From a virus, in the IMG/VR virus record IMGVR_UViG_2597490295_000013, positions 21,285 to 85,284 of that record: a DNA stretch of 64,000 nucleotides, one strand, 5' to 3'. A program made the translations under genes and the position numbers. The notes beneath the pieces are model-generated. The model was not told the DNA's origin. It saw only the letters and a program-made list of their open reading frames with translations, and ran no database searches. Below are positions 7,715 to 64,000 of this stretch, piece after piece; position 1 is the first letter of the stretch, and every line of letters starts with the position of its first letter.

Positions 7715-7936
7715 ATGGCGTTGACAGTAGTAGAGAATGGTCAAGAAGTTATCTTAAAAGAGATAGATTGAGGAATAAAGTTAAAAAGAAAATTAGAAAG
7801 CATGGGATTAACACCTGGTGTTAAAATAACTATGATTCAAAGCTCGTCATTTGGACCTTGTATTGTTGAGGTAAGAGGAACAAGACTTGCGCTTGGAACT
7901 GAAATTATAGCTAAAATATTTGTGCGGTTTAAATAA
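7715..7936 (+). CDS. feoA: FeoA ferrous iron transport protein A (one TGA=Trp); absent from the ORF track
   Basis: GGAGG RBS; MALTVVENGQEVILKEID(W)GIKLKRKLESMGLTPGVKITMIQSSSFGPCIVEVRGTRLALG: typical FeoA L-x-x-M-G-L-x-P-G and VRG-x-R-LALG motifs. Confidence 0.85.
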
Positions 7937-8057
7937 ATTTAACGCAATAGATGAGGACTTTACGTTCTTCGTTTATTGTGTTTTTTACATAAATATGTTA
8001 TAATAAAAGTAGGAATAATAATTTGAACACTTTTGTCCAAATACTATAAATATAAGA

Positions 8058-9140
8058 ATGGTGGTGAAAATAATCAAACTTAAACTAGATACAACTATAA
8101 AAACCCAAGAGGAACGAATGGAATATATTAAAAAAATAATAGATTCCCCGGAATTTAGACCTAATTCATGGGTTTTGGAACTATTGACTAACTATGTTCT
8201 ATTTTTGAAGCCAAGAAAAGACCATTCAATTATAAGTGATAATAGACGTAAAACAATAAGGAAAAGAGAAACTTCAACAGAAGGACTTAAAGAAAAATTT
8301 GAAACTGGAGAAGATGCGATTTACAATTTAATTAGAAATGATAAGAATATGATATTATCTCCGAAAGTAACTATAACTCCACGAGATATTGCGGAACATA
8401 TTGAATTGAAACAATTAGTAGATACCATAAAAGAATGAGATGCGGAAATGAAGAGAAAAAATCTAACAGGGAAGAACCTGTATAGAGCAAAGAAAGCATT
8501 AATAGAGATGCGTCAGATGCAATACATAATTAAGGAAGAACTGAATAAACCATCAAGAATGAGAAATTTTAGAAAGACAACTTTAGAAATGCAGTTTAGT
8601 ATTGACACATGGTATATAAAAGAAGATGGAGACGTAAAATTAGTTAGTGAAGATACTATAGATTTTAAAGAGGGGAAGCACATAGAGATGTTGCTTTATT
8701 ATTACCCGAAGCTTATAGATTCTGCTTGAGATTTTAACAAAAGTGAAATGAAACATATATTATGGGATTTGGAATTACTTATTAATGCGTCATTAAAAGA
8801 AAAACCAGCTTGAAAAGATATTATTATTTGGAAAATAGATAAAAGAACTAATAAAGATATTAGAGAAATGTTACGTGAAGACCATAATTTGATCTATTCA
8901 GAAGAATATATTTCTACTTTATATAGGAATAAAATTCCTGCATTTATTGCGGAATATTATAGAATATCAGTAGAAGATTGGTATCATCTTAATAAAGTGA
9001 AAGGCACTTATAAAAAATGTAATAGATGCGGCGAACAGAAATTAATGAATAATACAAATTTTTCATTAAACAAAGGTAGTAAAGATGGGTTCTATTCCAT
9101 TTGTAAATCTTGTCGAAAAAAGAAAAATAAAAAACAGTAA
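8058..9140 (+). CDS. Conserved phage protein with a C-terminal CxxC-x-CxxC zinc finger (360 aa, 3 TGA)
   Basis: Track fragments 8058, 8448 and 8868 are in one frame joined by TGAs; KCNRCGEQK...ICKSCRK; upstream promoter TTGTGT-17-TATAAT (7976-8004). Confidence 0.8.
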
Positions 9141-9157
9141 CCCTTGGAGGTTGAGAT

Positions 9158-10405: not shown

Positions 10406-10423
10406 TAGAAAGAAGGGAACTGA

Positions 10424-11476
10424 ATGGTTGAAAAGAAAAAATGTACTGGATGCCATCAAGATCGCTCTATAAAAGAATTCTGAAAAAGTAATAATTTAGA
10501 AATGTACCCTGGGGACGGCAAGATAGATCTTTGTCGTTCTTGTCTTACTAAGGGTGTAGAAGATTTAGAGGATTGGAGAGGTGTACGAGAGGTATGCAAA
10601 GTAATGGACTTTCCTTATTTGGATAAGGTTTGGAAAGGTGTAGTAGTAAAAATAAAGGATAGTAATAGATATAATATGTCTTCAGAAGCTAAGAAGCGAG
10701 AAACTATTCGTAAAGCATTAGGTGATTATTCGCGATTAATGAAATTAATAGCATATAGGAATAAAACTTATAGAGATTCTGATGCAATTGTTACGTTAAT
10801 TGATAACGCTGCGGATGAAGTGAAAAAATTAGAGGTAGAAGCAAAGAATGAAGAATTGAGATTAGTTATCGAAGCAAGTCACATCTCCCTCTCTGTCGAA
10901 GACAGGTCATTTCTTATGCAAAAATGAGATACGAGTGATTTAAGTGATATAATGTATTTAGAGGATTTTTATTTAGGTATGATGGATGACTTTGATATCA
11001 GTACTACTTCGCATAAAGATTATCTTAGAAAAATTGCGTTAATATCATTAAGACTAAATAAAGCAATAAAACAAGATGATTGGGACGCTATTAAGGTATT
11101 ACGTGTAACATATAGTAACTGGATGAAAGAGGCTGATTTTACAGCACAACAAAATAATAAAGATAAATCAGAATTTGCGTCTTGCTTTGGAGAAGTTGCG
11201 GCATTTTTAGAATCTAAAGGTTTTATAGATACAATAAATTTAGATTTTCCAAGAGATATAGTTGATAGAACTATTGGTAATTTGAATTCTTATACAAAAG
11301 ATTTAGTATTAAGCGAGAATGGACTTGGGGATTTACTTGAATCTACTATTGCACTTATGAATAAACCAGAAGAAGATGAAGAAGCCGATTATGTATATGG
11401 TGCAGATGATTGAGATGAAGATTTAGATATTGACTGGTCTGGAGAAGATGCAGACGAGGATGATGAAAATGAGTAA
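10424..11476 (+). CDS. Zinc-finger protein upstream of TerL, candidate terminase small subunit (350 aa, 3 TGA)
   Basis: ATG 10424, KCTGCHQ...DLCRSC; fragments 10502 and 10952 joined in frame; acidic C-terminus ends TAA 11476; position next to TerL. Confidence 0.65.
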
Positions 11477-12195
11477 TATGTCAGACAAAAGAAGAGAAGA
11501 AGTATTACTTAACATTAAAAAGCAAGTAGCTATAGCAAAAGAAAAAGATTTTGGATTAAATAATTTAGAAATTACAGAAGAAAGATTAAATAAAATAGAA
11601 CCTGAACTTAGAAAACAATTTGGCTTTTGGAAAGCATATCCTGATTTATTTTTGGACATAATTTTGCCGAAAGAATCTAATTTTAATTTTTATTTTTATC
11701 AAAGAGTTTTTCTTAGAATAGCAATGCGTTATAAACTTATTTATGCAACTTTTACTCGTGCATTTTCAAAGTCTTTTTTATCTATAATTATAGAATATTT
11801 AAAATGTATTTTTTATCCTGGCGCTAAACAATTTATTACAACTGGTGGCAAAGGACAAGCCGCACAGATTGCGGAAGAAAAGATAAAAGAGATATGGGGA
11901 ATTTGACCAATTTTAAAGAATGAATTATTATCTAAAAGTGGATGAAGCTTTCAGAAAGATGGAGTAACTTTAAATTTTAAAAATGGTAGTATCCTCGATG
12001 TTGTCGGTATGCGAGACAGTACTAGAGGAGGTAGAAGACATGGGGGGTTGATAGAAGAGACGATCTTAATAGATGGTGTTAAACTCAATGAGGTGATCCT
12101 GCCTTTAATGAATGTCAGCAGGAGAGCTAAAAATGGCGAGGTAGATCCAAATGACATCAATAATAAAAGTCAAATTTTTGTGACAACCGCTGGGT
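11469..12195 (+). CDS. terL: Terminase large subunit, exon 1 (ATPase domain; 2 TGA)
   Basis: FTRAFSKS Walker A variant, RGGRRHGGLIEE Walker B, FVTTAG coupling motif just before the splice site. Confidence 0.88.
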
Positions 12196-12987
12196 TAACA
12201 TGGGTAGCCCCTCTTGCTAGTAATAGTAAGATGAAAATTCTTTTAATTGCTGGAAAATCCTTATAGGACAATCAGCAGCCAAGATTTAATATGTGTATAA
12301 GAGAGGAGAAATTATGTTTAAAAATGTAATAGCTTGAAATGTAAAACCAAACTTATACAAAATAAATGAAAAAGGTGAAGTATTAAGCATTTATATGAAT
12401 AAAATTATGAAAACAAGACTAGATAAAGATGGATATCCATCATTATCTCTCAGGAATAATAAAGGTGGATATAGTACTTTTTATATTCATAGATTATTAT
12501 TATCTACTTTTAATCCAATAGAGAATTATAGAGATATGACAGTTAATCATAAAAATGGGATAAAAACTGATTTCAATTTAGAAAATTTAGAATGAATGAC
12601 TAATTTGGAAAATTTAGAGCATGCGAATAGAACTGGCTTGCATAATGTAGTTGGAGAAAATCATCCTCGAGCGAAATTAACTGAAAAAGATATTTTTAAA
12701 ATATTAGACTTATTAAAATCAGGAATGAGTGGAGTCAGTATATCAAAAATATATAATGTTAATGAAAGCTGTATCTCTAAAATAAAAAATGGGAATACTT
12801 GAAATCATATTACACATATTAAATAAGGTTCAACGACTATGGGAGTAGCGTCCCTTAGGTTATAAGTTAATGATAACCGAAACGGAGAATGCCCGAAAGG
12901 GTAAAGATATAGTCTAGTCTGCATGGTAACATGCAGCAGTTCATAAGAGAACGGGATAAAGTGTTGCGGCTTTATTCGAATATAACG
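12196..12987 (+). mobile_element. Group I intron (792 nt) interrupting terL
   Basis: P AATTGCTGGAAA (12245), Q AATCAGCAG (12270), R GTTCAACGACTA (12828), S AAGATATAGTC (12904); exon ends in U with P1 GGGU/GCCC; intron ends in G; splicing restores TTAG-Y-KGSFAYEKL in frame. Confidence 0.9.
12314..12826 (+). CDS. Intron-encoded HNH homing endonuclease (170 aa, 3 TGA)
   Basis: GAGGAG RBS; YIHRLL...TVNHKNGIKTDFNLENLE(W)MTNLENLEHA HNH core; C-terminal HTH-like segment; lies between Q and R. Confidence 0.88.
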
Positions 12988-14063
12988 ATAAGGGTAGCTT
13001 TGCTTACGAAAAATTGATTCAGGTATTATTATGACAAGTAATTAAGCCAAAAGATGCATTCATCCTTGGTGGAGATTATCGTATCCCAATGATGCATGGT
13101 CTCCTTGATAAAAATTTTGTTAAAGAACTAAAAGCTGACGGTACTTATAATGAAACATCTTTTAACAGAGAATATGGTTCACGTTGGTCAGGCACTAAAG
13201 ATGGAGCTTTTTTTGACGCAGAAATATTTACAAAATATAGAATGCTAGGACATGCTGAATTTTCTCCAGACGGAAGAAGCAGTAAAGATACTTTTTATAT
13301 ATTTGGAATTGATGTTGCTCGTCATAGAGCCCAAACAGTAGTAGTTATTATTAAAGTAACTTTAAATCAAACAACAGGTCTTTGGGATAAAAGAGTTGTA
13401 AATATGCATGTTTATGAAGATGCGCATTTTGATGATCAATGTGGTGAAATTAAATATTTATTTAATATATTTAGACCAAGAGCAATCGTAATTGATGGTA
13501 CTGGTTTAGGTACTGGTTTAATAGATCCATTAGTAAAACGAACAGAATATAACGGTATCGTTTACGAACCTTTTGGTGTAATTAGTGAAAAACATAAAGA
13601 AGATTATGAACAATTTATACAACCAGATACAATTCCTGTTTTATATATTATTAAAGCAGATCCAGCAATGAACAGTGCAATGCACTCAAATATATATGCG
13701 CAATTAGTTGGCGGAAGAATGAAATTTTTAATTGATGAACGTACAGCTAAAACGAAGTTTGCTTCAAGAAAGAATTGAAATACTTTATCATCAGAAGATA
13801 GGGCAAGAAAGTTAAAACCATTTACATTAACTTCTATATTAAAGGAAGAAATGTTAAACTTACGTCGAGAGGGCGAAGGTGGAGACATTCGTTTGAAAAA
13901 AGTTCGAACTACAGTTGGTAAAGATAAATTCTCTGCTCTTGAAAATGGTCTGTATTATATTTATTTATTAGAAAGAGATAAAAGAAAAAAATTAAATATA
14001 GATGTTAAGGCTATAGTAAAGATGACTAAGAAAACAAAAAAACAATGGAAAAGATGGAAATAA
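12988..14063 (+). CDS. terL: Terminase large subunit, exon 2 (nuclease domain; 2 TGA)
   Basis: FGIDVAR, VIDGTGLG and KDKFSALE motifs; fragments 13089 and 13851 joined in frame by TGA. Confidence 0.88.
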
Positions 14064-14130
14064 AACTCCATTTCTTTTCTTTTTTGTAAAAATATGTTAT
14101 AATAATAAGTGTTGGAGGTGAAATTAAATA

Positions 14131-15573
14131 ATGCTTAATAATAAAAGATTAAAAGATTATATAGCGCAAGGAAAAGATTTAGAAGCCTTTAAGGGTCAAG
14201 AAGCTCTTTATAATCCTACCGTATTACCTAAATTTACTTTTTCAGAAGAAGATATTAGGACTGCTATAGATGGGTTAAATGTAGCAAAAATGAGAGATAT
14301 ATCAATGTATTTTTATTATGCTAGCAAAGCTTATGGTAGATTAGTTGATTATTTTGCTAATATGTTAACTTTTGATTATTTAATAATCCCAAAAAGACAA
14401 AATGGGAAAAAGAAAAAAACAATTGATAGTGAAAAAGTACAAGAAGAATTATCTAAAGTTCTTAAAACTTTTAAGTTGAGTAGAATCAAACAAGAGTCTA
14501 GAGAGATTGCATCAAAAGTTTTAATAGAAGGTGTTTTTTATGGATATTTAATGTATTCAAAAGAAAGTATGGATATTCAAGAATTACCTTATAAATATTG
14601 TACTACAAATTTTGAATATATGGGAGTACCTATTATTGAATTTAATTTAGAATATTTTGATAGAGAATTTAGAACTGAAGAACAAAGAGTTTTAATTTTA
14701 GAAATTTATCCTAAAGAAATATATGATGCTTATAATGCATATAAGAATGGCGGACCAAAAATATTTTATGTAGAACCTAAGCATTCTATGGTATTTGCAT
14801 TAAATGATAATAACATTCCTTATCTTATTAGCATAATTTTAGATATTATTAGATTTAATAATTATAAAGCTATAGATGAAATTAGAAATGAACAAGAAAT
14901 ATTAAAACTTATTATACAAAAACTTCCAGTTAATAAAGATGGTACGTTAATTTTCTCTCCAGAAGAGATTACTTATCTACATACGATAGTATCGGATATG
15001 TTAGAAGAAATGCCATCAATAGATTTAATTACAACTTATGCGGAAATATCAACTGAGAATTTACAAGAACAACGGAATTCAATGCAAAACTCTATGGGTA
15101 ATGCCAAGAGTAACATTTATTCTGAAGCTGGAGTAAGTGAACAGTTAATGGATGCATCTGGTAATGTAGCATTAGAAAAATCTATTAAAACTGATGAAGG
15201 TGTAATGTTTAACTTATTAGAATCTATAAGGAATTTTTTTCAATTTGTTTTAGAAACAGAGTTCTCAGGTAAGAAGTTATCCTACAGTCTTATCATGCCA
15301 GAATTAACTATTTATAATAGACAAGAATGGTTTGATAGATACCTCGAAGGTGCACAATATGGATACAGCAAATTGCTAGTCGTATTAGCAATGGGCATTG
15401 ATCAAGAAGATTTTTATGATTTAATGGATTATGAAAATAATATTCTTAATATTGTGGATCAATTAATTCCTTTACAATCTAGTCATACTACTACAGGTGA
15501 CGAAGGCGGTAATCCAGGGAAACCAGATGAGAATAAAGATGACAAAACAATAGTTAATCAGAATAATGATTAA
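14131..15573 (+). CDS. Portal protein
   Basis: 480 aa directly after TerL; size, position and acidic C-terminal tail typical of a portal; no TGA. Confidence 0.75.
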   Translation: MLNNKRLKDYIAQGKDLEAFKGQEALYNPTVLPKFTFSEEDIRTAIDGLNVAKMRDISMYFYYASKAYGRLVDYFANMLTFDYLIIPKRQNGKKKKTIDSEKVQEELSKVLKTFKLSRIKQESREIASKVLIEGVFYGYLMYSKESMDIQELPYKYCTTNFEYMGVPIIEFNLEYFDREFRTEEQRVLILEIYPKEIYDAYNAYKNGGPKIFYVEPKHSMVFALNDNNIPYLISIILDIIRFNNYKAIDEIRNEQEILKLIIQKLPVNKDGTLIFSPEEITYLHTIVSDMLEEMPSIDLITTYAEISTENLQEQRNSMQNSMGNAKSNIYSEAGVSEQLMDASGNVALEKSIKTDEGVMFNLLESIRNFFQFVLETEFSGKKLSYSLIMPELTIYNRQEWFDRYLEGAQYGYSKLLVVLAMGIDQEDFYDLMDYENNILNIVDQLIPLQSSHTTTGDEGGNPGKPDENKDDKTIVNQNND

Positions 15574-15585
15574 AGGAGGTAAAAA

Positions 15586-36109: not shown

Positions 36110-37606
36110 ATGATGAAGTGGAAATGGATGCCTGCAGCAGCATCACTATTGTTAACAGAAGATTGTAATTTAAGATGCACTTATTGTTTCGAAAAGCATA
36201 ATAAAAAGAAAATGAGTAATGAAGTTGCACTTAAATCTTTAGAATTTTTATCTAATAATGCGATAGAAAATAAACAAAATTATTTTTCAGTTACGATGTT
36301 TGGTGGAGAACCATTATTACAACCAGATTTAATGGAATTTATTTTTAAAAATGGACATCGTATTGCGCAAGAAAAGAAGATTCATTTTTCTGTAACAATA
36401 ATTACTAATGCAACAATTATGTCTGATAAAATTTTTAATATGCTTTCTTATTGGAATACTAAAATAAGTTTAAGTGTTCAATTATCAGTAGATGGAAAAA
36501 AAGAAAGTCATGACTTATATAGAATTACTGCGGCTGGGATAGGAAGTTTTTATTTAATTGAAAAAAATATTCCTAAATTTAAAGAAATTTTTAAAAATAA
36601 TCCAAAGTCATTAAATATTCATGGAGTTATTAATAAAAAAACGTTACCAAAATTATATGAAAATTATAAAATGTTTAGAGAAGAATGAGGATTTTCAAGA
36701 ATTTGGTTTTTAATATTACAAAGTGAAACAGAATGAAGTTATGAAGATGTGGCAATTTATGAAGAAAATTTGCGATTAATAGCAGATTACCAATTGAATA
36801 TTGTTAGAAGAGAAGGCAATATAGATGAAATTCGTAATTATGCGCCAATTGATAAATGTTTAAGTTTTGAAAGAAATTTAAGTAATTCTCCTTGTGGAGC
36901 AGGTAAAAATTTTGTAACAATAACTGCAAATGGAGAAATTTATCCATGTCATCATTTTTATTTTAATGACCCTAATAAAGAAACTAAAATAGGAGATCTT
37001 GATAATGGTCTTGATGAAGCAGCTAGAAGAATTTATATAGATTATGATGGAACAGATTTAACTTGTGAAAAAAATTGTCCTAATAATAGTTGTTATAGAT
37101 GTATAGCACAAAATTGGACAGATAAAGGAAGTATTTTTTCTCAAATTAAGGGAATTAATTGTTTATTTTCAGGAGTTGAGAAAAAAATACAAGATTATAC
37201 ATTGAAAGAGTTGAGAAAAATGGGGATATTTAATAAAAGTAACCAAAAATCAAATAATCCTAATTGTTTATGTGATTTAAGAAGTGGAGAAAATCAATCA
37301 AATCAATCAAATAATTCTGATTGTTATTGTGATTTAAGAACGGGGAATAGTCAAACAGAAGGAGTTGGTTGTGGTAATAATGTAACTCCTAAAAATAATC
37401 AATCTAAAGAATCAGATTGTTATTGTGATTTAAGAACTGGAAATACTCAAACAATTTTTCCAGAAGGAGAAAAGCAAATGTCTTGTGAATTGAATGATGA
37501 GAAAAAATCAAAAAAAGAAATTGATATAATTCTTATTAATCAACTTGCTGAAGCAGTAATAAAAATTATAGATGAAATTGAAGAAATTAAAAAGAAAATA
37601 GAATAG
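36110..37606 (+). CDS. Radical SAM/SPASM maturase-like protein with C-terminal CxCDLRxG repeats (498 aa, 2 TGA)
   Basis: CNLRCTYC; MFGGEPLL; SPASM-like CGAG..GEIYPC..CEKNC..CYRC; fragments 36110 and 36749 in frame. Confidence 0.88.
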
Positions 37607-37615
37607 GAGAATATA

Positions 37616-39100
37616 ATGGGATATAGTTTAAGATCTGTTGCCAATGCTATAGCAGCGAATGGTGGATATGATATGACTCTTGATGCAGCATCGAAGTCAT
37701 TACAAACTTTAAAAAATCTTATTCTTGATACTAATTCTTTCAGAGAAAAGAGTACATCTTTATGTGAAACATATGTGTATGTAAATGCAAATTCAGCAAA
37801 TGATTCGTTCGGGGGAATTTCAGGTAAAATTAGTGAAATTATTGATTGCTCTTGTAATAGTGTTACCCCTACTTGCGATTGTCAAGATAGGACATCTGCT
37901 CCTGCTTGTACGTGTGATATGGATTATACTTGTGATTGTGAGTTAAGAACTGGAGAACCAACTTGTTTAACTGAAATTACATGTGATTGTCAATCTAGAT
38001 TTACTGCTGATTGTACTTGTGATAATAGAGTTGGAGATTGTAGTTGTCAAAGTAGGACATCTGTTCCAACTTGCACTTGTGATGTAGAAGATCCAGATAC
38101 TTGTGATTGCCAATCTAGAACATATTTACCAACTTGTGAATGTAATACTCTTGCAGCATGTAATTGTCAGAGTAGAACAGGTTCATCTTCTTGTACTTGT
38201 AATACTGATTTAGGAGGAACTTGTGATTGTCAAGCTAGAACAGCAGTTCCGGCTTGTACTTGTAATGTACAAGATACTTGTGATTGCCAATCTAGGACAT
38301 ATACACCAACTTGTACTTGTAATGTAGAAGATCCAGATACTTGTGATTGTCAAGCTAGAACAGCAGTACCAACTTGTACTTGTGATGTTAATCCTTATTG
38401 TGATTGCGATACCAGAACCTATGCACCAACTTGTACTTGTGATGGTAGAACTGCTACATGTGATTGTAATACTAGAACTGGTTGTATATTATTGATAGCT
38501 TGTAATTGTCAATCTAGGACTTATGCTCCAACTTGTACTTGTGATTTAAGAACAGGTATTTGTACATGCGAGAATAGAACTAGTGAACCAGCTTGTGATC
38601 TTAATGTACCAGGAAGTTGCACATGTGAGAATAGAACTTATGCACCAACTTGTACATGTAATGCAAGAACAAATACTTGTGATTGTGTAGATAGAACTAG
38701 TGAACCGGCATGTACTTCTTATACAGCTCCATACTGTACTTGCCAATTTAGGACAGGTGATCCAACTTGTCTTTGTAATTTAAGAACAGCTTCTTGTACT
38801 TGTCAGTCAAGAACAGGACAACCTGAATGTGATCTTAATATACCAGGCAGTTGTACATGCGAGAATAGAACTGCGATACCTAGTTGTACATGTAACATTG
38901 ATGCATATTGTGACTGTGAAAGTAGGACTGGAGAAGTAAGTTGTTATTGTGATTTAAGAACAGATTCTTGTGAATGTGTTGGTAGAGGAACTCCTGATTG
39001 TACGATAAATTTTCCAGCATGTACTTGCGAATCAAGAGATGCGGTACCTACTTGTGAATGTGATATTGATCAAACAGCTACAGACATTTTCAGTGAATAA
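37616..39100 (+). CDS. Cys-rich CxC repeat protein (494 aa, about 37 CxC motifs, about 80 Cys)
   Basis: About 77-aa non-repetitive N-terminus, then repeats of C-x-C-x-x-R-T-x-x-P-x alternating with shorter C-x-C linkers; AGGAG RBS; no Trp. Confidence 0.9.
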   Translation: MGYSLRSVANAIAANGGYDMTLDAASKSLQTLKNLILDTNSFREKSTSLCETYVYVNANSANDSFGGISGKISEIIDCSCNSVTPTCDCQDRTSAPACTCDMDYTCDCELRTGEPTCLTEITCDCQSRFTADCTCDNRVGDCSCQSRTSVPTCTCDVEDPDTCDCQSRTYLPTCECNTLAACNCQSRTGSSSCTCNTDLGGTCDCQARTAVPACTCNVQDTCDCQSRTYTPTCTCNVEDPDTCDCQARTAVPTCTCDVNPYCDCDTRTYAPTCTCDGRTATCDCNTRTGCILLIACNCQSRTYAPTCTCDLRTGICTCENRTSEPACDLNVPGSCTCENRTYAPTCTCNARTNTCDCVDRTSEPACTSYTAPYCTCQFRTGDPTCLCNLRTASCTCQSRTGQPECDLNIPGSCTCENRTAIPSCTCNIDAYCDCESRTGEVSCYCDLRTDSCECVGRGTPDCTINFPACTCESRDAVPTCECDIDQTATDIFSE

Positions 39101-39112
39101 AAGGAGAGAAAA

Positions 39113-40036
39113 ATGGAGAGATATGTTGTGCATGTAACTAAAAGATGTAACTTAGATTGTTTTTATTGTTATGAAGATGATAAGAGCAGTATTTATTCTT
39201 GAAAAGAAATTAAATATTTTATAGATGAAATAATAAAATATGCTAAAGAACCTTTTTCTATTGAATTCCTTGGTGGAGAACCTTGTTTAGAAACAGGATT
39301 GATGTTAAAAGCTATTAATTATTTTAAACAAAAAACAAATTTAATTGATAGTTTTGGTATTACTACTAATGGGACTATAGTAGATACAAACTTATTGCAA
39401 ATTTTAAAAGAGAATAAGAATGTTTATATAGGGATTAGTTTAGATGGGACAAAAAATATGAATCAGTTTAGAGTTTTTAAAAATACTAAAGATAATTCAT
39501 ATGATAAAGTAATAGAATCTATTGAAGTATTAAAAGAAAATGGGTTTATAGATAGAATAAGTATTCATATAGTAACTCATTTATATAATGTTTATTTATT
39601 ACATCATGGGATAAAGCATCTCCAATCTTTAGGAATTAAAAGAATTGGAGTTGGTACAATAGAAAAAACGATGGAAATTGATGATATGTACGTTAAAACT
39701 TTTGTTTCAGAATTTAAAAAAATATCAAAAGATATTGCTAAAGGGATAATAACAGTTCATATAGATTTATTAGATTATTTAAAACCAAAATCTGATGTTA
39801 GACATTATATATATGACAAAGGGAAAATTGTAGGAGAAAGTTATGGCAGAGCTAAAGACGATATAACAAATAATAAAAATAATTTTAATATTATTGCTCC
39901 AGGTTCACCATTCTCAGATATGATATATAATTTAAGAGAGACGGTTTATAATAATCATAAACAAATATTATTAAAAGAACAAAAACGAAAAGAATTTTAT
40001 AAATTATGTAATATTATTAAAGGAAAGACAAGCTAA
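39113..40036 (+). CDS. Second radical SAM protein without SPASM (307 aa, 1 TGA)
   Basis: AGGAG RBS; ATG 39113, VTKRCNLDCFYC, FLGGEP, ITTNG, ISLDG; the track ORF (39299) misses the CxxxCxxC motif because of the TGA at codon 30. Confidence 0.88.
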
Positions 40037-42689: not shown

Positions 42690-44369
42690 ATGCCACAAAA
42701 TACACCTAATTATGGATTAAAAAAATATAGCACTATCATAGATGGTCCAGAAATATTTGATAATTATATAGATGATACATCAAATAATTTTGAAATTATA
42801 GATACTGAATTAAATAGAGTAGAAGTTCAATCTGATTTTTATAAAGCTGGTTGAGATGATAACCAAACTTATCCAATTTTAAGTTTTGATGATTTAACTA
42901 GGACTTTTACAGTAGAAGGGAATGGTGCAACTTATTGGATTAATAATGTTCATTATTCTTTAGATATAGATGCTTCTATTCAAATTCCGGCAATTGAAGG
43001 AGTTCATTTTATTTATTTTACTAGCAGTGGTATAGAAACTTCTACTACAGAATGACCTTTTAATAATGAAGTATGTCCTATATCTATTACTTATTGAGAT
43101 AATACTAATTTAAAAAAGATTGGGTTAGGATATGAATTTCATAAATGAAGAATGGATCCAAGTCTTCATCATTATTTACATGATACACGTGGAACAGTAT
43201 ATAGCGAAGGTCTTGGTGTTACTCAGGTATCATCAACTACAATAAGAGTTGGTACAGGAACTATATTTGATGAAGATATAGAATTAAGAATAGGAGACAA
43301 TATAGGGAGTAGTCAAGTATTAAATCCATTGAGCAGTCCTATTGTTTATAGGATAGGAGAAGATGGAGATCTTAGATTAATTACAGCAAGTACTGACGTA
43401 TGTTATCTTAATCCAGGTCCAGAAATAAATACTTTTAATGGAAGTATTTGAGAAATGACATCTGTAAGTAATAATAAATATTTTTGTTATTGGTTACTTG
43501 CAACGAATGATTCAAATTTTCCAATAATTTTAGTACCAGGTCAAGTAGAAGGAGGAACATTAAAAGAAGCAGATGAATTGAACACTTTAGCAGGAATGCT
43601 TTTTGGAAATATTCATTTTGCAGAATTTGTTGTTTTATCAAGAGTTATGATGTTAGCAACTATAAGTTCTTATTCAATAGTACAAATAGATGATTATAGA
43701 ACTTCAAATGTTGCAAGTTCTTCTATCGTAAGCGAAAGTGCTCCTATTGTAATGGATGTTTTACCAGACATTACTACTAGAGATGCACTTGAGAATCCAT
43801 CTACGGGTAAACAAGTTCATATTATTGACGCAAGTGGAGATTCTAATGTCTACTCTAGCTGAGCACAGTATATTTACACAGGAGCGGTTTGAGTAAAAAC
43901 CAATGAAGATGATATTAATACTTCTTTTGGGACTTTTTATCAAAAAGAAACAGATCCATACAATATGGTTACAACTGGGACAAGTACTTTTACAGGAAAT
44001 AAAGTTGCATTAGTAATAACACAATCTGATATTCAAGGAGGAATAAGTCTTAATGGAGTAGATGGCAGACTTGAACATTCTGGAAGAGATACTAATTATC
44101 TCTTTAATGCTACTGCCACAGTTAGGGACCCTGATACTCCAAATATGAAAATTCATTTTATATTAGTTAAGAATGGAACAATATTTATAAATCCTTCAAT
44201 GAGCTATGGTAGATTAGAATCATTAGGAGCTGCTATGAGTTTAGATGCAGCATCTAATGTAAATATGTCAGATGGAGACTATATAGAAGTTTTTTGTAAA
44301 ACTGATAAATTAGATGGAGAATTTTGAGTTGATAGTATGCAATTACAATTAGTTCAAGTTCCACAATAA
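42690..44369 (+). CDS. Tail fibre / receptor-binding protein (559 aa, 8 TGA)
   Basis: MPQNTPNYGL start typical of fibres; three track fragments plus gaps join in one frame; C1q-like end (MSDGDYIEVFC). Confidence 0.7.
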
Positions 44370-44404: not shown

Positions 44405-45091
44405 TTACGATTTTAATTTATTCCTTAGTTTTTCTAATATAAGATCAATTTCATTTATTATTGCTAAGCAATCTTGTATTTTTTTATCTTGTTTTTCTTT
44501 TTCTGAATCTTCAAAAAGTATAGAATAATCAATATTAAAATATTTACAAATTGCAACTGCATGAGCCATTGCTATTTTATCACGATAATTTTCATCTAAT
44601 AATTTTTGAGCATCTCTTTTATTAGTCATGAAACCATTTTCACTTAGAATTGCTGGCATTGTAGTATAACGGATTACATAGAAAGCTTTTTCTTTAACAC
44701 CTCTACTAATCATTCCTGTCGCTTTAATTAATTCATCTTGGACAAGTCTTGCTAGTTTTGGTCCCATGCTACTTCCGGGACAATTAAAAGTTTCTATACC
44801 AGTTACGCTATTCCATCCGCCACTACCAAAAGCATTGGCATGGATAGAAACAAAAATATCTGCATTCGTTTTATTTGCGTTTGAAACTATTTCACCTAAT
44901 GGCATATCACGTGTTTCACTGCCAACTTTAATCACTTCAAATTGACCAGTTTTTAATAAAAGTTTTTCAATTCTTTTAACAACTGCGATATTAAAATAAA
45001 ATTCTTTCATGTGGCTACCATCTATAAAATTTGGTGTACGTTTACCAGCTGTGTTCGGTCCATGACCTCAATTTAATGCTACTATATACAT
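44405..45091 (-). CDS. Endolysin, N-acetylmuramoyl-L-alanine amidase (Amidase_3; 228 aa, TGA at codon 8)
   Basis: AAAGGAG RBS; MYIVALN(W)GHG...MKEF...SIHAN...ILSENGF: all three Zn ligands and the catalytic Glu are present only with read-through. Confidence 0.92.
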
Positions 45092-47806: not shown

Positions 47807-48430
47807 ATGGCTTGGGAATTTTTTGATTTAGGAGATCATTCGAATAAAACTTTAGGTACAATGAATGATGTAACTATAAAAAATTTAACTGATTTTCTTA
47901 CTATAATTGTAAGTGCTATTAGTGCTATTAATAATATGGATACGGAAATACCTTCTATAGATACAATTAGAATTGTAAATATTTCTAATGAAATTGCAGC
48001 TTCAACAAGCGATGCAAAGACACCTACATTAAATTTAGGTTTAAATATAAGTGCAGAAGTATCAACTTTAACAGCAAGTACGAATGAACCTAATTTAAGT
48101 TTAGGATTAAATGTAATTAGTAATACTGCAAATTCTAGTACAAATGCAGAAGTTCCTATTTTAAGTTCAGGATTAGACATCAGTGCAGAAATTTCAGTAA
48201 ATACTTCAGATGCAGAAGATCCTATTTTAAGCACAGGAGCAAGTATTGGTGCAGAAATATCAACATCAATAAATGATGCTGAGATACCTACATTAAATTT
48301 AGGTTTGAATATTAGCGCAGAAATATCAGTGTCATCAGTAGATATCCCTAGTGCAGTAATTACATCTATATTAGGAGCACCAATTTTAGCAGCAATTCAA
48401 CAAGATTTTAACATAGAACTAACTTGGTAG
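47807..48430 (+). CDS. Short 22-aa-repeat protein, paralogue of 48445-51876
   Basis: About six repeats of (D/N)AExPxLxxGLxIxAExSxS. Confidence 0.75.
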   Translation: MAWEFFDLGDHSNKTLGTMNDVTIKNLTDFLTIIVSAISAINNMDTEIPSIDTIRIVNISNEIAASTSDAKTPTLNLGLNISAEVSTLTASTNEPNLSLGLNVISNTANSSTNAEVPILSSGLDISAEISVNTSDAEDPILSTGASIGAEISTSINDAEIPTLNLGLNISAEISVSSVDIPSAVITSILGAPILAAIQQDFNIELTW

Positions 48431-48444: not shown

Positions 48445-51400
48445 ATGGCTTTAATTAAAACTTTTACATTTACCGGCTCTTTAGAGAGTTGGGTAGGTAC
48501 AGATGAAAACAGGGCGTATGCGGTTAATACATCAACAGATATTGGTTTTGATGCTCTTGGTCGTAATCAAGATGGATTACCAACTTGGGAATGGACTGGC
48601 ACTTGGGAAGATTTAGGGGCTAGTGTTGGAGATACAATAACAGATTGTCAAATAAGTTTTGATGGTGAAGTTGATGGATATGAAACTGTAGATACTGCAC
48701 AAGTAAAATTACAGATAACTGTTGCTAGTACTACATATGATTTATATACTTGAGAACCAACAACGACAGAATCTTATAGTACTAGGAATGGTTCTACTAC
48801 AGATTTTGGTGGTACGTCAAGTGCATCTAATGCAACTATTACAATAACATTCGCTGGTAATTTAGATACTGGTAATAGTGCAACTGGAGCACTTTCTTTT
48901 AATATGGATAATGTTGCAATAAGCGTAACCGCAGAAACAGCTGTAGATGTTACAGCAGTAACTGCAACAATTACTCCAGTAGATGCACAAATTCCTACAT
49001 TAAGTTCAGGATTGAATATTGCAGCATTGACTTCAACAATTACTCCGGTAGATGCACAAATTCCTACATTAAATGCGGGATTAAGTGTTAATGGAGTAAC
49101 TGCATTAAATACGAATGATGCAGAAATTCCTACAATAATTTCAGAATCAAATATAAATATTAATGGAGAAGTTTCATTAAATGTAAGTGATGCGGAAATA
49201 TCAGAATTAAATGTTGGATTAAGTATAGATGCAGAGGTATCAGCAGCAACGAGCAATGCAAAAGAACCTTCAGTATCAATAAATGAAACAATAAATGCGG
49301 AAATCGCAAATTCTAATATAGATGCGGAAATTCCTATTTTAAGTTCAGGGTTAAATATTAGTGCAGAAGTATCACCATCAACAAGTAATGCAAAAGAACC
49401 AATAATATCAATAAATGAAATAATAAATGCGGAAGTATCAACAAATACCTGTGAAGCGCATGAGGTAGTAGTTGTTACAGTTCTTGATGTAGATATAATT
49501 GCTGAAAAAGCTATATCTAATATTCAAGGAGAAAATCCTGTTATAGAAACAAAAAGATTTGTATCAATTGATTCAGAAGTTTCAACAGTTACAACTTCTG
49601 CAGAAGTCCCAGTTTTATCTACTTATTTAGATGGGTATATAATAGAAAGAAAAATTGGGGTAGGAAGTTGGGAACCTCTAAATAAAGTAACAAAAATTAC
49701 TAGCGATTATTTAGATTTAAGTTTGGAGACTGGAGAGACTTATACTTATAGGATAAAAAGAGTAATTGGTACGAAGGAATCTGCTTGGTCTAATGAAGCA
49801 CAAGTAACTATGGAATCTCTTGGAATAGAAGCTCCTACATCAGTTAACAATGTGAATGCAGAAGAACCTGTAATATCAGTAGAAATTGTTATAAATGTAA
49901 GTGCTATTAATGCTATTAATAATACTAATGCAGAAGAGCCTGTTATGAGCTCAATCAGAAATATAGATGTAAACGCTATAACTGCGAATTCAATAAATGA
50001 TGCGGAAATTCCTATTTTAAGTTCAGGCTTAAATATTAGTGCAGAAACTGCAATTACAAATATTAATGCAGAAGAACCTGTAATATCAATAAGTGAAACA
50101 ATGAATGCAGAAGTTGCAATAAGTACTTCAAATGCGGAAATACCAAATTTAAGTTTAGGTTTAAATATTAGTGGAGAGACTGTAATTGTAAATACTAATG
50201 CAGAAGAACCTGTTATGAGTTCAATCAGAAATATAGATATAAATGCCATAACTGCGACTTCTGATCAAAATGCGGAAGAACCTGTTATAAGTTCAATTAG
50301 AAATATAGATGTAAATGCGGAAGTTGCGAATTCAACAACTAGTGCTCATAGTCCTGCTATAGGTGTTACTGAACCTGTTGAAGTATTTGGTGAAGTTGCT
50401 ATATCTAATAGTAATGCCAATATTCCTGATTTAAGTATTATTGTAAATGTATTTGCTGAAAAAGCTATTTCAAATACTAATGCTAATTCACCTGTTTTAA
50501 ATGTAGGCACTACGATTGGAGCGGAAGTAGTAAGTGTTAATGCAAATGCAAATGCACCAGAAGTATCTATACATGCTACAGTTGAATCAGAATCAGCAAA
50601 TTCTAACGTGAATGCGAATACACCTATATTAAATGTAGGTACTACAATTAATGGATTAACAGCTATCATAAATACGGATGCAGAAGAGCCCGTTATAAGT
50701 TCAATTAGGAATATAGACGTGAATGCTTTAACAGCAATTGTTAATTCTTTTGGACAACAACCTATAATAAATGCGGTTAGAAATACAACAATTAATAGTG
50801 AAATAGCTATGTCAAGTATAAATGCTAATGAACCTACTTTAAATGTTGGTGTTATGATTGAATCAGAATCAGCAAATTCTAATACGAATGCTAATATACC
50901 TATATTAAATATTGGAGTTATGATTGAATCAGAGTCAGCAAATTCTAATGTAAATGCAGAAATTCCTATTTTAAATATAGGTGCTACAATTAATGGATTA
51001 ATAGCTATCGCAAGCACAGATGCGAAAGAGCCTATAGTAGAACCTATAAGAAATAAAGATATAAATGCTTTAACAGCAATTAATAATATAAATGCGAATA
51101 TTCCTACAATGAGTTTAGGCTTAAATATTTTAGGAGAAGTAGCAATTAATAATACATTTGCTCAAGATTCTATAATAGATACTACATGGAATATTTATCT
51201 TGATGGAGAAGTTGCAATTAATGCCGTCAATGCGAATGAGCCTATACTATCTGTAGCAACTACAGTAAGTGGACAATTATCAACTTCTATTGTAGATACG
51301 AATGATCCTACTATATTTACTATTTGGAACCTTTCAGTAGATGGTGAAGTTTCAACGTCTAGCATAGAAGCTCTTATACCTTATGTAGGTATTACTATTA

Positions 51401-51876
51401 GTGCTGATGTAGATACAGAAGTTAGTAGTAATATGGCTGGTCCGTATCATCCAGATATTTATACAGAAATTACAGATGTTGGTTATATTTCAGTTGAAGT
51501 AATTACATGTTATACATTAGGAGATTATTTTGGAACGCAATTATTTGATATGCTTCATATTTCATTAGCAGAATTAATTTGTAATTTAACTACTAATACT
51601 AGTTTAATGGAAGAAATATCAGAATCTAGTTTAAATGCGAATATACCAGATATATCAACGGGAACAACTATTTATCCTCCAGTAATTTTAACAGTAGTTA
51701 AAGCGAACAAGGCTGCAATTCTAGCGATTGTAGATGATACATTGCCTAAGATATGGAAAGTTAAAGTATATGAAAAAATTAGAAAAATTATATTAAAAAG
51801 TGAATCTAGAAATATAAATATAGTTGAAGAAACTAGAGATTTGAAAGTTTATGCAGAGGAGGGAAGACATGACTAA
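48445..51876 (+). CDS. Large 22-24-aa-repeat fibre-like protein with one fibronectin type III domain (1143 aa, 1 TGA)
   Basis: More than 30 repeats of NAE(I/E)PxxSxxxNIxAE; FN3 YIIERK...YTYRIK...ESAWSNE; fragments 48445 and 48904 in frame. Confidence 0.8.
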
Positions 51877-56205: not shown

Positions 56206-56220
56206 ATAATTTTCTCCTTT

Positions 56221-59196: not shown

Positions 59197-59208
59197 ATAT
59201 CCCTCTCC

Positions 59209-59661: not shown

Positions 59662-59749
59662 CTTGTATTCCTCCTTTTCTTATGTACTATATTTTGTACC
59701 TTTATATAAGTATAACATATTTTGTAAAAAAACAGAAGTTGAGGAGATA

Positions 59750-62700
59750 TTATTCCCCACCTTCTCCTGTTCTTTCCCAAATAAGAGAGATAGTTCCATC
59801 TTCTCCTATATCAGTTATTTTATATATAGTATGTCTGCCAGTATTCCTATAAGTTTTAGCAACAAATTGACCGTCTCTTCTAAAACCTGTTATTAACAAT
59901 TTATTTCCTCTTTTAAACCAAGAACGTTCAACTATAGTTTTCTTATCATCGTTTCCTAATACTTCTGAAATTTGTCTATCAAAAGCAGAGAATTGATCTC
60001 TATAAAGTTTAACTACTGCTACTCCATTTGTTGTTAATAATGTGACAGTATGTCGTATTTTATCTTTATCTAATACAGTTCCTGCAATAGTATTTAATTT
60101 ATAAATAGGTCTGTCAATACCTTTATATCTATACCATCTTTCAATGATAGGTTCTTTAGGTAAATCATTAAATTCTGAAATCCCATAACTTGTGTAATCA
60201 ACATTTGCTAATTCATGTTCATGATGATAATAACAAATAGATTCCATTTCCCAATAAGAAATAGTTCCTTTCGCATACTTATTCCAAAACTCTGCGAATA
60301 ATGAATTATTGTATTCATTTAATATTTCTTTCATATTCGTTTTAATATAACTCTTAATTGGTAAAACTATAGGTTGATATATTTTATCTCATAATTTTTT
60401 AGAAATATATAAATTTCCTTCTATAGTTTCAACAAATGCTTCAGGAAAATCAAAGATAGTATAATATCCTTCTTTAATTGCTTCGTCAAATAAATAATAA
60501 TCATTATCATTAATAATAAATTTGTTTCCTCTTCTTCTCAAGTATTTATTAAATTTAGAAACTCTCATTTCTATCTTATATTTTTCTGGTATAAACCCAC
60601 CATTTATTAAAGCATTAAGATTTTGCATCGTTAATTTCTTTTTAGGCGCACATGCTTTCCATAAATAATCTTTCATTATTTCTTCTCTTGGTTTGTTTTC
60701 TAAAGTATCAAAAGAACCACCTTTAATAAGAGAAATCATTTGAGTTATATTTACTTTTACTTTCATACAAAAATCTTCTATTGATTCATAAGGTCTGTTT
60801 TCAATAATTTCTGCAACTAAATCTTGACCAATTTTATTCATACTTTTTAATCCAAATAGTATTAAATTGTTATCTGCGTCAGGCTTAAAATCAAAGTTGG
60901 CACGGTTAATATCAGGATAAACTAATATAACTCCATTTTCTTTCATTTTTCCTATAGCGGATGCGATAGAACCGTAATCAGTAGTTTTTGCTTTTTTAGC
61001 TTCACTATCTTCTAATGAACCAGCATTTACAGATAAGCAAGCAGTATTCCAATAAACGATAGGATAATTATAAGCAAGGTTCAATTGTTGAACAGCTATA
61101 ACAGTATAAGGTAAAGTATGGCACTCTGAGAAACTGTATCCAGCTTGTGGCAAAATACATTCTTTCCAAATATAGCGTAACATATTTAAAGAAGTTCCTA
61201 GTTTTAATCCTTTTTCTTTAAATAATTCTTTTACTTCATCCATTATTTTCTTTTTCTTTTTAGCTACAGCTTTTCTTAATTTATTTGCTTCTTTTACGTT
61301 AAAACCACTTATTCTTTTATCCATTGCTAATTTCATAATTGATTCTTGTGTAGTAGCAATCCCGTAAGTAGCTTCTAAATGTTCTTTTAATATTAGCCTT
61401 TCTTCTAAGGTTAATCCATAATCTATCATTAAGTTATCCCAAAGTTTTATATTGTCTTTAAATTCTATATACTTATCGATAGGTTGTTTTTGACCTCTTT
61501 CTGCCATTAATCTCATTAAGTCATTACCAGAAGCAGCTTGCTTAAGAGAAATAGGTTTAATTTTTTGGGCTGTTTGTATCCCAATAGAAGTTGAATATTG
61601 GAATAAATCTAATACTTTATTTTTATGCATTAACTTCCATATTTCTAAATTATCAAATTCTAATTTATCAGGATATAAATAATAATCATAAGTTTCTCTT
61701 AAAGAATCTTTCCATTCAATTCTACCATCTTCAGATAGTAAATCTAACGTAACTCGGATTTTATCCATAGCTTTCACTGTGAGAAAATCATACTTAAGAC
61801 CTCCAAGGTAGTCTGAATTTTCCATATTAAATTGTGTGATAGGTTGTCCACTTGGAGCACGCATCATTACATTTCAATCTGTAAAATCAGAAGAGAAAAT
61901 GTAAACTCCAGAAGCGTGTATGCTACGCTTATTAACTAGCCCTTCAATTCCAAATGCTACTTCTTTTAATCTATCATATTTATTTATTTCATGTATAAAT
62001 TTTTTACTAGGTCGTCTTTCTTTTTCTTCATTCCCATAATAACAATCATCTAAAGTCCAATTAAATCCTCTTTCAATAGGAATTAAACTAGCAATAAATT
62101 CTGCTGTATCATTGTCAATTCCTAGCCCTCTGCAGGCAGTTTGCAAGGCTGACTTAGATTTTTCAGTTCCAAAAGTAGCAATGTTAAGAACTCTTTTGTA
62201 GCCAAGTTCTTCTTTTAATTTTCGTAAAATTAAAGCACGTTTGCTAGCTTCAGTATCGAAGTCAACATCTGGGAGCTCTGGTCTTTCTGCTGAGATATGT
62301 CTTCAATGAGGAAGCTCATACTTTATTGAATCTATTTGAGTAATATCCATTAAGTAAGCAGTTAAGAATCCATTTACAGAACCTCGACCTGGACCAATCA
62401 AACTATTACCGCCATCATCTGCTCAAATTAAATCCATAATATATTCCATTGTATTATAATATTGACTTATATTTTCATCCATATTAATACCAATACCAAT
62501 GATTTCACTAATTTCTAAATCTATTCTAGCAAGATATTGGTCAGACCATAGTCCTTTATTATATAATCCATAAAGACTTCTTAATGCAAAATATAATTCT
62601 TGATCATTGTCAGAATTTATATACTTTTCAATATTATCATATTTCATATAAGCATCATGAACTAAATCTCTAAATTCTCTATTTGTCATTATCATTTTTT

Positions 62701-63694
62701 CTATTTTGTCTAATTTTAATTTTTCACGCACATTTACACTAGGCACAACTTGCTTATGATATAAATCATAATTTTCGCACATATCAGGAATTGCTATCGT
62801 ATTTTCAATAATTTCTTTTATTTGCTCTTCTTTTAAAGAAATACTTAAATAATCAACCATTTCATTCATTTCCATCATATAAGTAGTTGAATAAAAATCA
62901 TCAACTTCTCTATCTCCTTGTTTAGAATTAAGATAAGCTTTATGAACAGTCCTATCTTCTTTTGTAAGATAATGACTATCAGTAGTAACTATAGTTTTAA
63001 CTTTATAAACAGTAGCTATTTCATAAGCTAATTTATTAAAAATATTTTGTTCATCTTGTGCAGATGGTTGAATTTCTACAAAGAAATTTTCAATACCGAA
63101 TGTATTAATTCCCCAATTCATAAAATTATCTATCCAAATTTTACTTGATTCCGCACCTTCACTTCTATAATAGTTTAAAACAGCTTGAGGAAATTCTCCA
63201 CCAAGACACGCTGTAGCTCCAATAATGTCGCCTCTATATTTTTCCATAATTTCTTCTAAAAATTTCTTATCAGTAGGAACTCTTTCCATTGGACCTCTTG
63301 TATGAAATGAATTTTCCCATGCTTGACTAGAAAGGATTCTTAATGCTTCATGCCCTCTCTTATTTTTAGCCAAGAGAATGAAATGATAAAACGATGCCTT
63401 TCCACCATCTTCATAAATTTGTTTAATTTCTTCGGCACTATCTATTAAATATATTTCATTTCCAAGAATTAATTTAAAATCATTATCTAATTCTTTACTC
63501 TTTAAATGTTTTATTGCATCTACATGCGCGGATAAAACTTCGTGGTCAGTAATAGCGATACCATTACTACCTAATTCAATTGCTCTATCTATTAATTTTT
63601 CAACTTTATTAATGCTATCTAAAAGTCTTATATTAGAATATTCAGTATGATTATGCAAATAAGGAATTTGATTATATATTTGTTTATTTATCAT
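59750..63694 (-). CDS. dnaE: DNA polymerase III alpha subunit (family C; 1314 aa, 4 TGA)
   Basis: PHP LHNHTEYS/AITDHE; GPGRGS; ERPELPDVDFD; HASGV; KYDFL; OB-fold C-terminus; four track fragments in one frame. Confidence 0.96.
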
Positions 63695-63705
63695 TTTACC
63701 TCCTA

Positions 63706-64000
63706 TTATAAAAAACTTTTATTTAAATTTATTATTTTTGTTTCTTTAAATTTTTCTTTCATTGCTGTTGTTGCTAAATAATCTGCTCTTTCATTCCCTT
63801 TAACCCCTGAATGACCTTTTACTTTTACAAATTCAACTATACACATAGAGCTATTCACTAATGCATCTAACCATTTCCATAAATCTTTATTTTTTACTTC
63901 TTCTTTTTTAGAATTTTTCCAACCATTTTTCTTCCAATTATCTATTCATTTTTTATTATAAGCATTTGCTACATAAGAAGAATCTGTATATATAATTATT
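63706..64000 (-). CDS. rnhA: Ribonuclease HI, C-terminal part (start outside the window; 1 TGA)
   Basis: YTDSSYV..K(W)IDNWKKNGWKNSKK..VKNKDLW..KVKGHSG..NERADYLA. Confidence 0.92.

Follow-up and report, generated by a model that had tools for sequence, protein, structure and literature searches.

Recoding of TGA to tryptophan in a marine-sediment phage with an SPbeta-like replication module and a candidate suppressor tRNA

Introduction

Stop-codon recoding by phages that bring their own suppressor tRNA into a standard-code host is a known phenomenon, documented for TGA-to-Trp (genetic code 4) gut phages of standard-code bacteria, for example those of the ~127-kb ‘Agate’ and ‘Jade’ clades (Borges et al., bioRxiv 10.1101/2021.08.26.457843). 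Here we describe TGA-to-Trp recoding in a 64,000-nucleotide (nt) stretch of phage DNA (the ‘window’; IMG/VR record IMGVR_UViG_2597490295_000013, positions 21,285–85,284), which corresponds to C53:21285-85284, where C53 is one of 78 contigs in a 2.1-Mb metagenome bin. A preliminary description of the window had proposed a reassignment imposed by the phage on a standard-code Firmicutes host, with the decoding machinery encoded elsewhere in the genome. Certain crAss-like phages of Bacteroidetes, which are unrelated to the C53 phage, have reportedly been found (by Yutin et al., in 2021) to carry TGA-recoded late genes preceded by a phage tRNA(UCA).

The C53 phage resembles the gut phages of Borges et al. 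in its size of ~127 kb, its lack of an integrase, its reading of TGA as Trp with a predicted suppressor tRNA(UCA) of its own, the near disappearance of TGA stops, the location of the code-change gene in a standard-code stretch, and the strong recoding of homing endonucleases and of a protein encoded beside the lysis genes. It differs from them in coming from marine sediment rather than the gut, from Agate in that replication genes, which Agate keeps in the standard code, are here recoded, and from Jade in having neither release factor 1 (RF1) nor tryptophanyl-tRNA synthetase (TrpRS). Mycoplasmatales and Entomoplasmatales, whose cells use code 4, likewise read UGA as Trp through a UCA-anticodon tRNA that is also able to read UGG, and the same decoding is predicted here. 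In those bacteria, however, the change is cellular and accompanied by loss of release factor 2 (RF2), whereas here it concerns a single phage genome, along which it is uneven, and bears marks of competition with RF2. Of the Trp codons, 30% are TGA, irregularly distributed, and the only associated cellular genome has prfB.

By sequence comparison, the replication module and, more weakly, the head and tail genes appear related to those of SPbeta-like phages of Firmicutes, represented here by Bacillus phage SPbeta (Spbetavirus) and Staphylococcus phages. The SPbeta module YorF-YorG(Sak4)-YorH-DnaB-YorJ-RecJ-YorL is syntenic with that of the C53 phage at 30–40% identity, with 44–45% identity between YorL and the phage DNA polymerase III alpha subunit (Pol III alpha). 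YonG, YonF (terminase), YomI (tape measure protein, TMP) and YomG have weak collinear matches (22–28% identity), the portal has no tblastn match in SPbeta, and the two genomes are of similar size. SPbeta, however, uses the standard code, is temperate (SprA recombinase) and has a class Ib ribonucleotide reductase (RNR), whereas the C53 phage possesses a class II RNR, 24 tRNAs and gyrase genes, and lacks an integrase or resolvase (no tyrosine integrase, serine recombinase or resolvase was found on C53 when matches to PF00239 and PF00589 were sought). No YonO-like RNA polymerase was detected by tblastn against the SPbeta genome; the phage does have a sigma-like gene. Scans of viral and genome contig collections with Pol III alpha recovered no close relatives.

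Results

In-frame TGA codons across the phage genome

Under code 4, positions 7600–64000 of the window hold 63 in-frame TGA codons, distributed over 29/50 genes, along with 122 TGG codons (the genes counted being 49 code-4 calls plus the N-terminal piece of the large terminase, TerL), which bears out an earlier hand count of about 60 TGAs in about 30 genes and about 125 TGGs. The whole of C53 has 108 TGA and 258 TGG codons, TGA accounting for ~30% of Trp codons and TGG for ~70%. Stops comprise 127 TAA and 45 TAG, candidate TGA stops number at most two or three among the 172 phage genes, and the positions of TGA codons are uniform, with no enrichment close to gene starts. It had been remarked in the preliminary description that nearly all genes end in TAA or TAG; this holds, but is automatic under code 4, and the real test is therefore whether reading through TGA yields proteins of homologue length without fusing neighbouring genes. 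It does: translation table 4 joins the table-11 fragments of TMP (1947 aa), RNR (774 aa) and Pol III alpha (1314 aa), and each of the fused proteins matches its family end to end. TerL, which had also been listed among the genes made whole, is encoded in two pieces rather than as a single open reading frame (ORF).

Coverage of C53 by ORFs of ≥150 aa rose from 0.53 under code 11 to 0.70 under code 4. The same measure for the other 77 contigs of the bin was ~0.85–0.95 under code 11, with a gain of ~0.01 from code 4. On C72, C78, C70 and other contigs with a small gain, the extra ORFs were out of frame or were terminal extensions, and recoding was rejected. The comparison of coding densities thus shows a clear rise for C53 alone, the only recoded contig within the bin; since relatives in two other assemblies also use TGA for Trp, the proposal that the reassignment is imposed by the phage stands.

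The sequence held by C53 (127,832 bp) is a complete 127.8-kb tailed-phage genome. Its two ends abut, with zero gap, inside the RNA ligase gene of an independently assembled 127,887-bp contig of the same phage, a gene which in C53 is cut by the contig end; C53 therefore represents the complete genome, on a circular map and without host flanks. The phage sequence is present in at least 11 assembled contigs of 50–200 kb, and is held only by four DNA runs, all of one marine-sediment sample, the sequence-run search listing no RNA run.

Tryptophan at the TGA positions

In an alignment of 119 Pol III alpha sequences (the query and 118 homologues), the columns of TGA sites 424 and 464 contained Trp in 118/118 and 116/118 homologues, respectively. 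The column of site 1102 was divided between Phe and Trp (F80/W31), and at site 607 the three nearest relatives all have Trp. Of the four RNR sites, two, in the motifs RRER-x-WETV and GRSL-x-VGGT, aligned to Trp of the L. leichmannii enzyme (1l1l), as the preliminary description had anticipated. Compared with SPbeta, TGA sites faced Trp in 6/16 cases, an aromatic residue in 10/16, and Gly in 0/16. A tblastn search of phage proteins against the rest of the bin recovered distant paralogues only, in which TGA was mostly set against Y, F or H and never against G.

The closest relatives are two contigs from other metagenome assemblies, one of JGI and one of ENA; they have 75–87% protein identity with the C53 phage and translate only with TGA as Trp. 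Window TGAs were matched in these recoded relatives by TGG (17 codons), TGA (12) or another codon (7), and, conversely, 17 window TGGs faced TGA; such exchanges were also seen in RNR. Since TGA and TGG replace each other in both directions, they behave as synonymous codons.

These alignments show that TGA stands for Trp, and exclude code 25 (Gly), selenocysteine (Sec) and sequencing errors. The chance that TGA encodes some other residue (Gly, Cys or Sec), or that the codons are pseudogene lesions or assembly errors, is in our estimation negligible. Two details could be cited in its favour: ARAGORN labels the phage tRNA(UCA) ‘SeC’, and one RNR TGA faces Gly, albeit in a variable stretch. However, the tRNA has a 4-nt variable loop and fits the general tRNA model rather than the Sec model, and neither detail accounts for invariant Trp columns, reciprocal TGA/TGG exchange, or the lack of Gly at any of the sites compared with SPbeta. 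Error, for its part, is contradicted by the repeated assembly of the same sequence in the contigs mentioned above and by conservation of TGAs in relatives from other samples.

A candidate suppressor tRNA outside the window

The preliminary description had placed the decoding machinery beyond the window and suggested a search for a Trp(UCA) tRNA. ARAGORN detected 24 tRNAs on C53, none of them inside the window, and the array they form is headed, in the direction of transcription, by such a tRNA(UCA), ~30 kb past the window end (Table 1). It folds as an ordinary 74-nt cloverleaf with a 4-nt variable loop and no additional ‘decoy’ arm. The tRNA model of Rfam gives it 36.6 bits, above the gathering score of 29, and it has no match to the Sec model. 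In common with the tRNA-Trp(CCA) of the bin it has A1-U72, G5-C68, G73 and an encoded CCA end, which are acceptor-end identity elements of Bacillus TrpRS. There is no second UCA tRNA in the bin. The array (C53 102150-115175) consists mostly of U34 ‘family-box’ readers and has no Met, Cys or Trp(CCA) tRNA, so that UCA is the phage's only Trp-type tRNA.

A homologous tRNA lies in the same place, after gyrA, on a relative contig (L117 9140-9213, + strand). L117 is another JGI contig, obtained from the sample that also yielded the recoded 83-kb relative, and its DUF2828 protein is 78% identical to that of the phage. Both ARAGORN and Infernal read the L117 tRNA as Glu(UUC), with low confidence. In a two-sequence alignment of the C53 and L117 copies, the anticodon stem of the UCA register includes two compensatory pairs; that of the UUC register includes none, and 4/5 of its pairs are broken in the C53 copy. 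Over the whole cloverleaf there are seven compensatory pairs, the anticodon loop being unchanged, and the acceptor stem of the L117 tRNA is perfect and Trp-like. No exact match to the core of tRNA(UCA) was found in viral and metagenome contig collections.

Code-neutral arms and order of transcription

TGA codons are unevenly spread. The middle block of the genome (C53 28.9–106.3 kb) has 90 TGA and 162 TGG codons in 80 genes, of which 46 contain TGA, compared with 18 TGA and 96 TGG codons in the two arms (Fisher p = 1.1e-4); TGA/(TGA+TGG) is therefore 36% in the former and 16% in the latter. In the left arm (C53 1–28.9 kb; 12 TGA, 68 TGG) most TGAs fall at codons 2–9, where they are likely start miscalls, or at last codons. 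Two window ORFs of this arm (1030–1377 and 4744–5103) end at TGA, with a TAA or TAG backup a few codons on.

Transcription of the − strand proceeds from 127.8 kb downward. The stretch traversed before tRNA(UCA), from 127.8 to 115.5 kb, encodes RNA ligase, a kinase-like protein, an SLT-domain protein, an M16 peptidase, gyrB and gyrA, and is free of TGA but for a GIY-YIG endonuclease gene and one TGA at a second codon, likely a start-codon miscall. Two members of this TGA-free stretch are the M16 (insulinase-like) peptidase at C53 121556-122773 and the ABC1/kinase-like protein at 124668-125429. TGA-bearing genes come after tRNA(UCA) in the order of transcription, and the layout of the genome suggests timing.

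The GIY-YIG homing endonuclease gene, the sole clearly recoded gene upstream of tRNA(UCA) (3 TGA, 0 TGG), splits gyrB at C53 118195-121132 (L005 8195-11132), past the window. In the relative L117, gyrB is unsplit (643 aa), and Rfam gave no group I intron match at the insertion. The large terminase gene is also interrupted, by an ORF for an HNH endonuclease. Rfam Intron_gpI matches flank this ORF at 12187–12377 and 12767–12936 (37 and 28 bits, under the gathering score of 50), and it is probable that the ORF sits in a group I intron.

A probable trace of RF2

UGAU is the strongest RF2 context in E. coli, a result reportedly obtained by Poole, Brown and Tate in 1995. On C53, T follows only 8/108 (7%) in-frame TGAs, compared with 23% of TGGs and with a frequency of 21% among codon first bases overall (TGAT deficit p = 2e-4 and 1.4e-4), while after the true TGA stops of the bin it reaches 49%. 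Avoidance of TGAT is what one would expect if a suppressor competes with RF2; a code-4 cell lacking RF2 would give no reason for it. The infected cell was probably, as had been proposed, one with the standard code: TGAT is avoided, the arms of the phage genome are code-neutral, and the bin combines prfB and TGA stops with the lack of a UCA tRNA. The genes of the bin also include prfA, trpS and tRNA-Trp(CCA), its coding is dense under table 11, and TGA makes up 11% of its stops.

The bin and the host

The bin (92.8% complete, 1.3% contamination) is a wall-less member of Izemoplasmatales. Its RpoB is 81–84% identical to those of Candidatus Izimaplasma/Izemoplasmatales metagenome-assembled genomes (MAGs), and at this completeness it lacks penicillin-binding protein (PBP) transpeptidase and MraY; peptidoglycan was lost at the Izemoplasmatales ancestor (PMC10868615). 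The phage is tied to the bin by binning alone. A CRISPR-based host prediction, advocated in the preliminary description, was run and came to nothing: the bin has no CRISPR array, and the 158 genomes of the order subjected to a 20-kb DNA search yielded no spacer-like match, only chance AT-rich matches of 24–30 nt, the four best of which do not lie within repeat arrays. In G+C content C53 (28.5%) is close to the bin (~29%), while its tetranucleotide distance to the bin mean is 0.016, compared with 0.004–0.009 for the large contigs of the bin. Phage GyrA is 41–46% identical across the whole class, and because this identity is flat it is uninformative as to host lineage. The ‘Firmicutes’ host of the preliminary description accordingly has as its basis the SPbeta-like relatives and the bin, not a direct link to a host.

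Could the phage simply match a code-4 host (TGA as Trp, without RF2, Mycoplasmatales-like), its contig having been mis-binned? The indirectness of the host link, the missing array and spacers and the deviating tetranucleotide composition would all allow this, and the phage tRNA set has UCA but no CCA Trp tRNA, as in code-4 mollicutes. We nevertheless hold it to be highly improbable, since TGAT avoidance makes sense only with RF2 present, TGG still provides 70% of Trp codons, and the TGA share is uneven, with early arms and a stretch upstream of tRNA(UCA) that are nearly TGA-free. The phage moreover encodes an intact Amidase_3 protein and an SLT-domain protein, and we know of no code-4 bacterium with a cell wall able to host such a phage.

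The wall-related genes of the phage (an intact Amidase_3 endolysin, a weaker Amidase_3 paralogue and the SLT-domain protein) raise a question about the bin itself. The preliminary description had taken the amidase to argue against a wall-less host; the amidase is indeed intact, yet the bin with which the phage is associated is wall-less, and therefore either the binning or the argument from the amidase is wrong. We give slightly better odds to a walled, standard-code Firmicute. An even bet, in our view, is a variant in which the recoding is unchanged and the phage infects not a member of Izemoplasmatales but a walled, low-GC, standard-code Firmicute of the same sediment. In its favour are the three wall-related genes of the phage, whereas the bin lacks PBP transpeptidase and MraY and belongs to an order whose ancestor had lost peptidoglycan (PMC10868615). 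The named relatives of the replication module, furthermore, all come from phages or prophages of walled Bacillus, Staphylococcus, Paenibacillus and Clostridium, and the bin, at 2.1 Mb, is larger than its genus mates (1.0–1.7 Mb). Against a walled host stand the binning of the contig with this MAG, the similarity in G+C, and the occurrence of phage-like contigs with Amidase_3 genes in two MAGs of the family and of a TGA-bearing portal-like ORF in a fourth MAG. We consider it unlikely, though a good deal less so than a code-4 host, that the binning is right and that the hosts of this phage and of its kin are Izemoplasmatales, which are wall-less, have the standard code and stand close to the mollicutes in which TGA became fixed as Trp.

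The contigs just mentioned are as follows. Two other Izemoplasmataceae MAGs contain phage-like contigs ending in an Amidase_3 gene (G097:C77, L105; G087:C37, L106), which encode a primase-polymerase, a helicase, a dNMP kinase, an RNR and a tail-repeat protein. A 2.2-kb contig (G155:C283, L098) from a fourth MAG of the order carries a portal-like ORF with two in-frame TGAs, 25% identical to the portal of the C53 phage. ORFs cover 0.78 of this contig when table 11 is used and 0.99 with table 4, and it may derive from a further recoded phage of which it is a fragment. Recurrence across MAGs could reflect either a real association or repeated mis-binning.

Gene content

Coordinates of the features discussed are collected in Table 1. 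The late genes of the + strand encode the sigma-factor-like protein, PhoH, the two-piece terminase, portal, a prohead protease/scaffold-like protein, the 1947-aa TMP, a YomG-like protein, a radical-SAM/SPASM cassette, tail proteins and two Amidase_3 proteins, as well as a 333-aa protein of unknown function (phrog_4088). The radical-SAM/SPASM gene (2 TGA) and its neighbours lie inside the tail module (window 36110–40036), and the 307-aa product of 39113–40036 has N-terminal similarity to ORFs of bin contigs C36 and C38. The 559-aa protein encoded just upstream of the lysis genes has no Pfam family and a weak match to phrog_7946 alone. Aligned to CwlV (1jwq), the endolysin retains the GHG, E, SIHAN and E motifs, which comprise zinc-ligand and catalytic residues. 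A 1143-aa protein (window 48445–51876) is without a Pfam family; its counterpart in the relative L010 has 785 aa and ~35% identity, and the gene beside it (47807–48430) matches the same 785-aa stretch of L010 repeatedly.

On the − strand, the window holds the genes for class II RNR, Pol III alpha, a RuvC-like protein and a radical-SAM enzyme, followed past its end by those for RNase H, a PIF1-type helicase, RecJ, DnaB, Sak4, YorF, DHFR and ThyA. After the genes of the ThyA region come the 24-tRNA array, gyrA, split gyrB, the M16 peptidase, the SLT-domain protein and an Rnl2-type RNA ligase.

Table 1. Location of the principal features of the C53 phage (window positions unless C53 is named).
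Feature	Position	Strand	Remarks
Code-neutral early arm	279..6149	−	Small leftward genes, no internal TGA
Late operon	7655-52416	+	Recoded block
Sigma-factor-like gene, head of late operon	8058..9140	+	phrog_5767, E 4.5e-45; TGA at codons 127, 224, 252
Large terminase, in two pieces	11430..14063 (11430-12266, 13014-14063)	+	Aligned to SPbeta YonF residues 45-206, 246-583
HNH endonuclease ORF between terminase pieces	12293-12826		3 TGA, 0 TGG
Portal	14131..15573	+	phrog_2739, E 2e-90; no TGA
Tape measure protein, 1947 aa	26116..31959	+	PhageMin_Tail, E 2.5e-27; one TGA joins two table-11 ORFs
559-aa protein just upstream of lysis genes	42690..44369	+	Most recoded gene: 8 TGA, 2 TGG
Amidase_3 endolysin	44405..45091	−	Pfam E 3.6e-37; TGA at codon 8
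Replication/nucleotide operon	52461 onward, past window to C53 106216	−	Recoded block
Class II ribonucleotide reductase, 774 aa	56872..59196	−	4 TGA
DNA polymerase III alpha (YorL-like), 1314 aa	59750..63694	−	4 TGA
tRNA(UCA)	C53 115102-115175 (L005 5102-5175), ~29.8 kb past window end	−	ARAGORN

Discussion

Taken as a whole, the data are very probably explained by a phage that uses TGA as a second codon for Trp in its replication, structural and lysis genes, within a standard-code cell and by means of a tRNA(UCA) predicted to compete with RF2. On infection, the machinery of the host would express the code-neutral early regions and the tRNA array. Host TrpRS would charge tRNA(UCA), by virtue of the A1-U72, G5-C68 and G73 that it shares with tRNA-Trp, and the charged tRNA would contend with RF2 for TGA. 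Genes bearing TGA, among them those for the late sigma factor, the homing endonucleases, the heavily recoded protein beside the lysis genes and the endolysin, would then be made only once the tRNA had accumulated, so that recoding would act as a timer of translation. It may, in addition, prevent phage genes from being expressed in cells that are not infected.

A number of points weigh against this explanation. Translation through TGA and charging of the tRNA are both inferred from sequence. Recoding also extends to replication genes, and a ‘late-gene timer’ therefore cannot be the whole story. On C53 no gene was found for RF1, TrpRS or another factor directed against RF2, the search for release-factor homologues and RF2 inhibitors that the preliminary description had recommended having come back empty, and the explanation thus does not show how a gene with eight TGAs would be completed against active RF2. 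The sole host candidate is a wall-less bin, yet the phage genes include those for an intact amidase and an SLT-domain protein. Finally, the tRNA is imperfect: the acceptor stem of the C53 copy has two U.U mismatches (U2.U71 and U3.U70), and the anticodon stems of both copies have three Watson-Crick pairs only, with conserved non-pairs at 27-43 (G.A) and 31-39 (C.C). With stems of this kind, tRNA(UCA) may or may not be an efficient suppressor.

Imperfect stems would also be compatible with TGA being read by the host tRNA-Trp(CCA) through near-cognate pairing, the UCA tRNA being incidental or inactive, and suppressor tRNAs were detected in just 35% of TGA-recoded phages (Borges et al., bioRxiv 10.1101/2021.08.26.457843). 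The tRNA, however, is conserved in position, and in the relative with a 78% identical DUF2828 protein encoded nearby it shows compensatory changes together with an anticodon loop that has not changed; eight TGAs in a single gene are, besides, hardly passable by leaky read-through alone. We therefore regard near-cognate reading as improbable, and retain decoding by the phage tRNA(UCA) as the preferred explanation.

Several features of the system are new. TGA-to-Trp recoding is extended beyond gut phages to a marine-sediment habitat and to a lineage with an SPbeta-like replication module and no recognisable integrase; the recoding is deep, replication genes included; and it is coupled with a TGAT-avoidance signal, of which no description was found in the preprint of Borges et al. 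(bioRxiv 10.1101/2021.08.26.457843), and with an apparent pairing with a wall-less bin. Avoidance of TGAT would be a measurable sign that suppressor and release factor compete. The phage offers a clean example of its kind, in that the genome is complete, the predicted suppressor tRNA heads its array, the early arms are code-neutral and the strong RF2 context is avoided. There is also a practical consequence, since standard gene callers shred this genome, and correct annotation of TMP, RNR, Pol III alpha and many tail proteins requires that C53, alone among the contigs of the bin, be translated with code 4.

The coexistence of an intact endolysin with a wall-less bin is a warning about host assignment by binning and, should the binning prove right, an interesting puzzle. 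Were Izemoplasmatales the host, phages of wall-less bacteria would be keeping peptidoglycan amidases for some other purpose. A phage-encoded tRNA-Trp(UCA) would, moreover, be circulating in a lineage adjoining the origin of code 4, which would provide a route by which a cell could gain UGA decoding before the loss of RF2.

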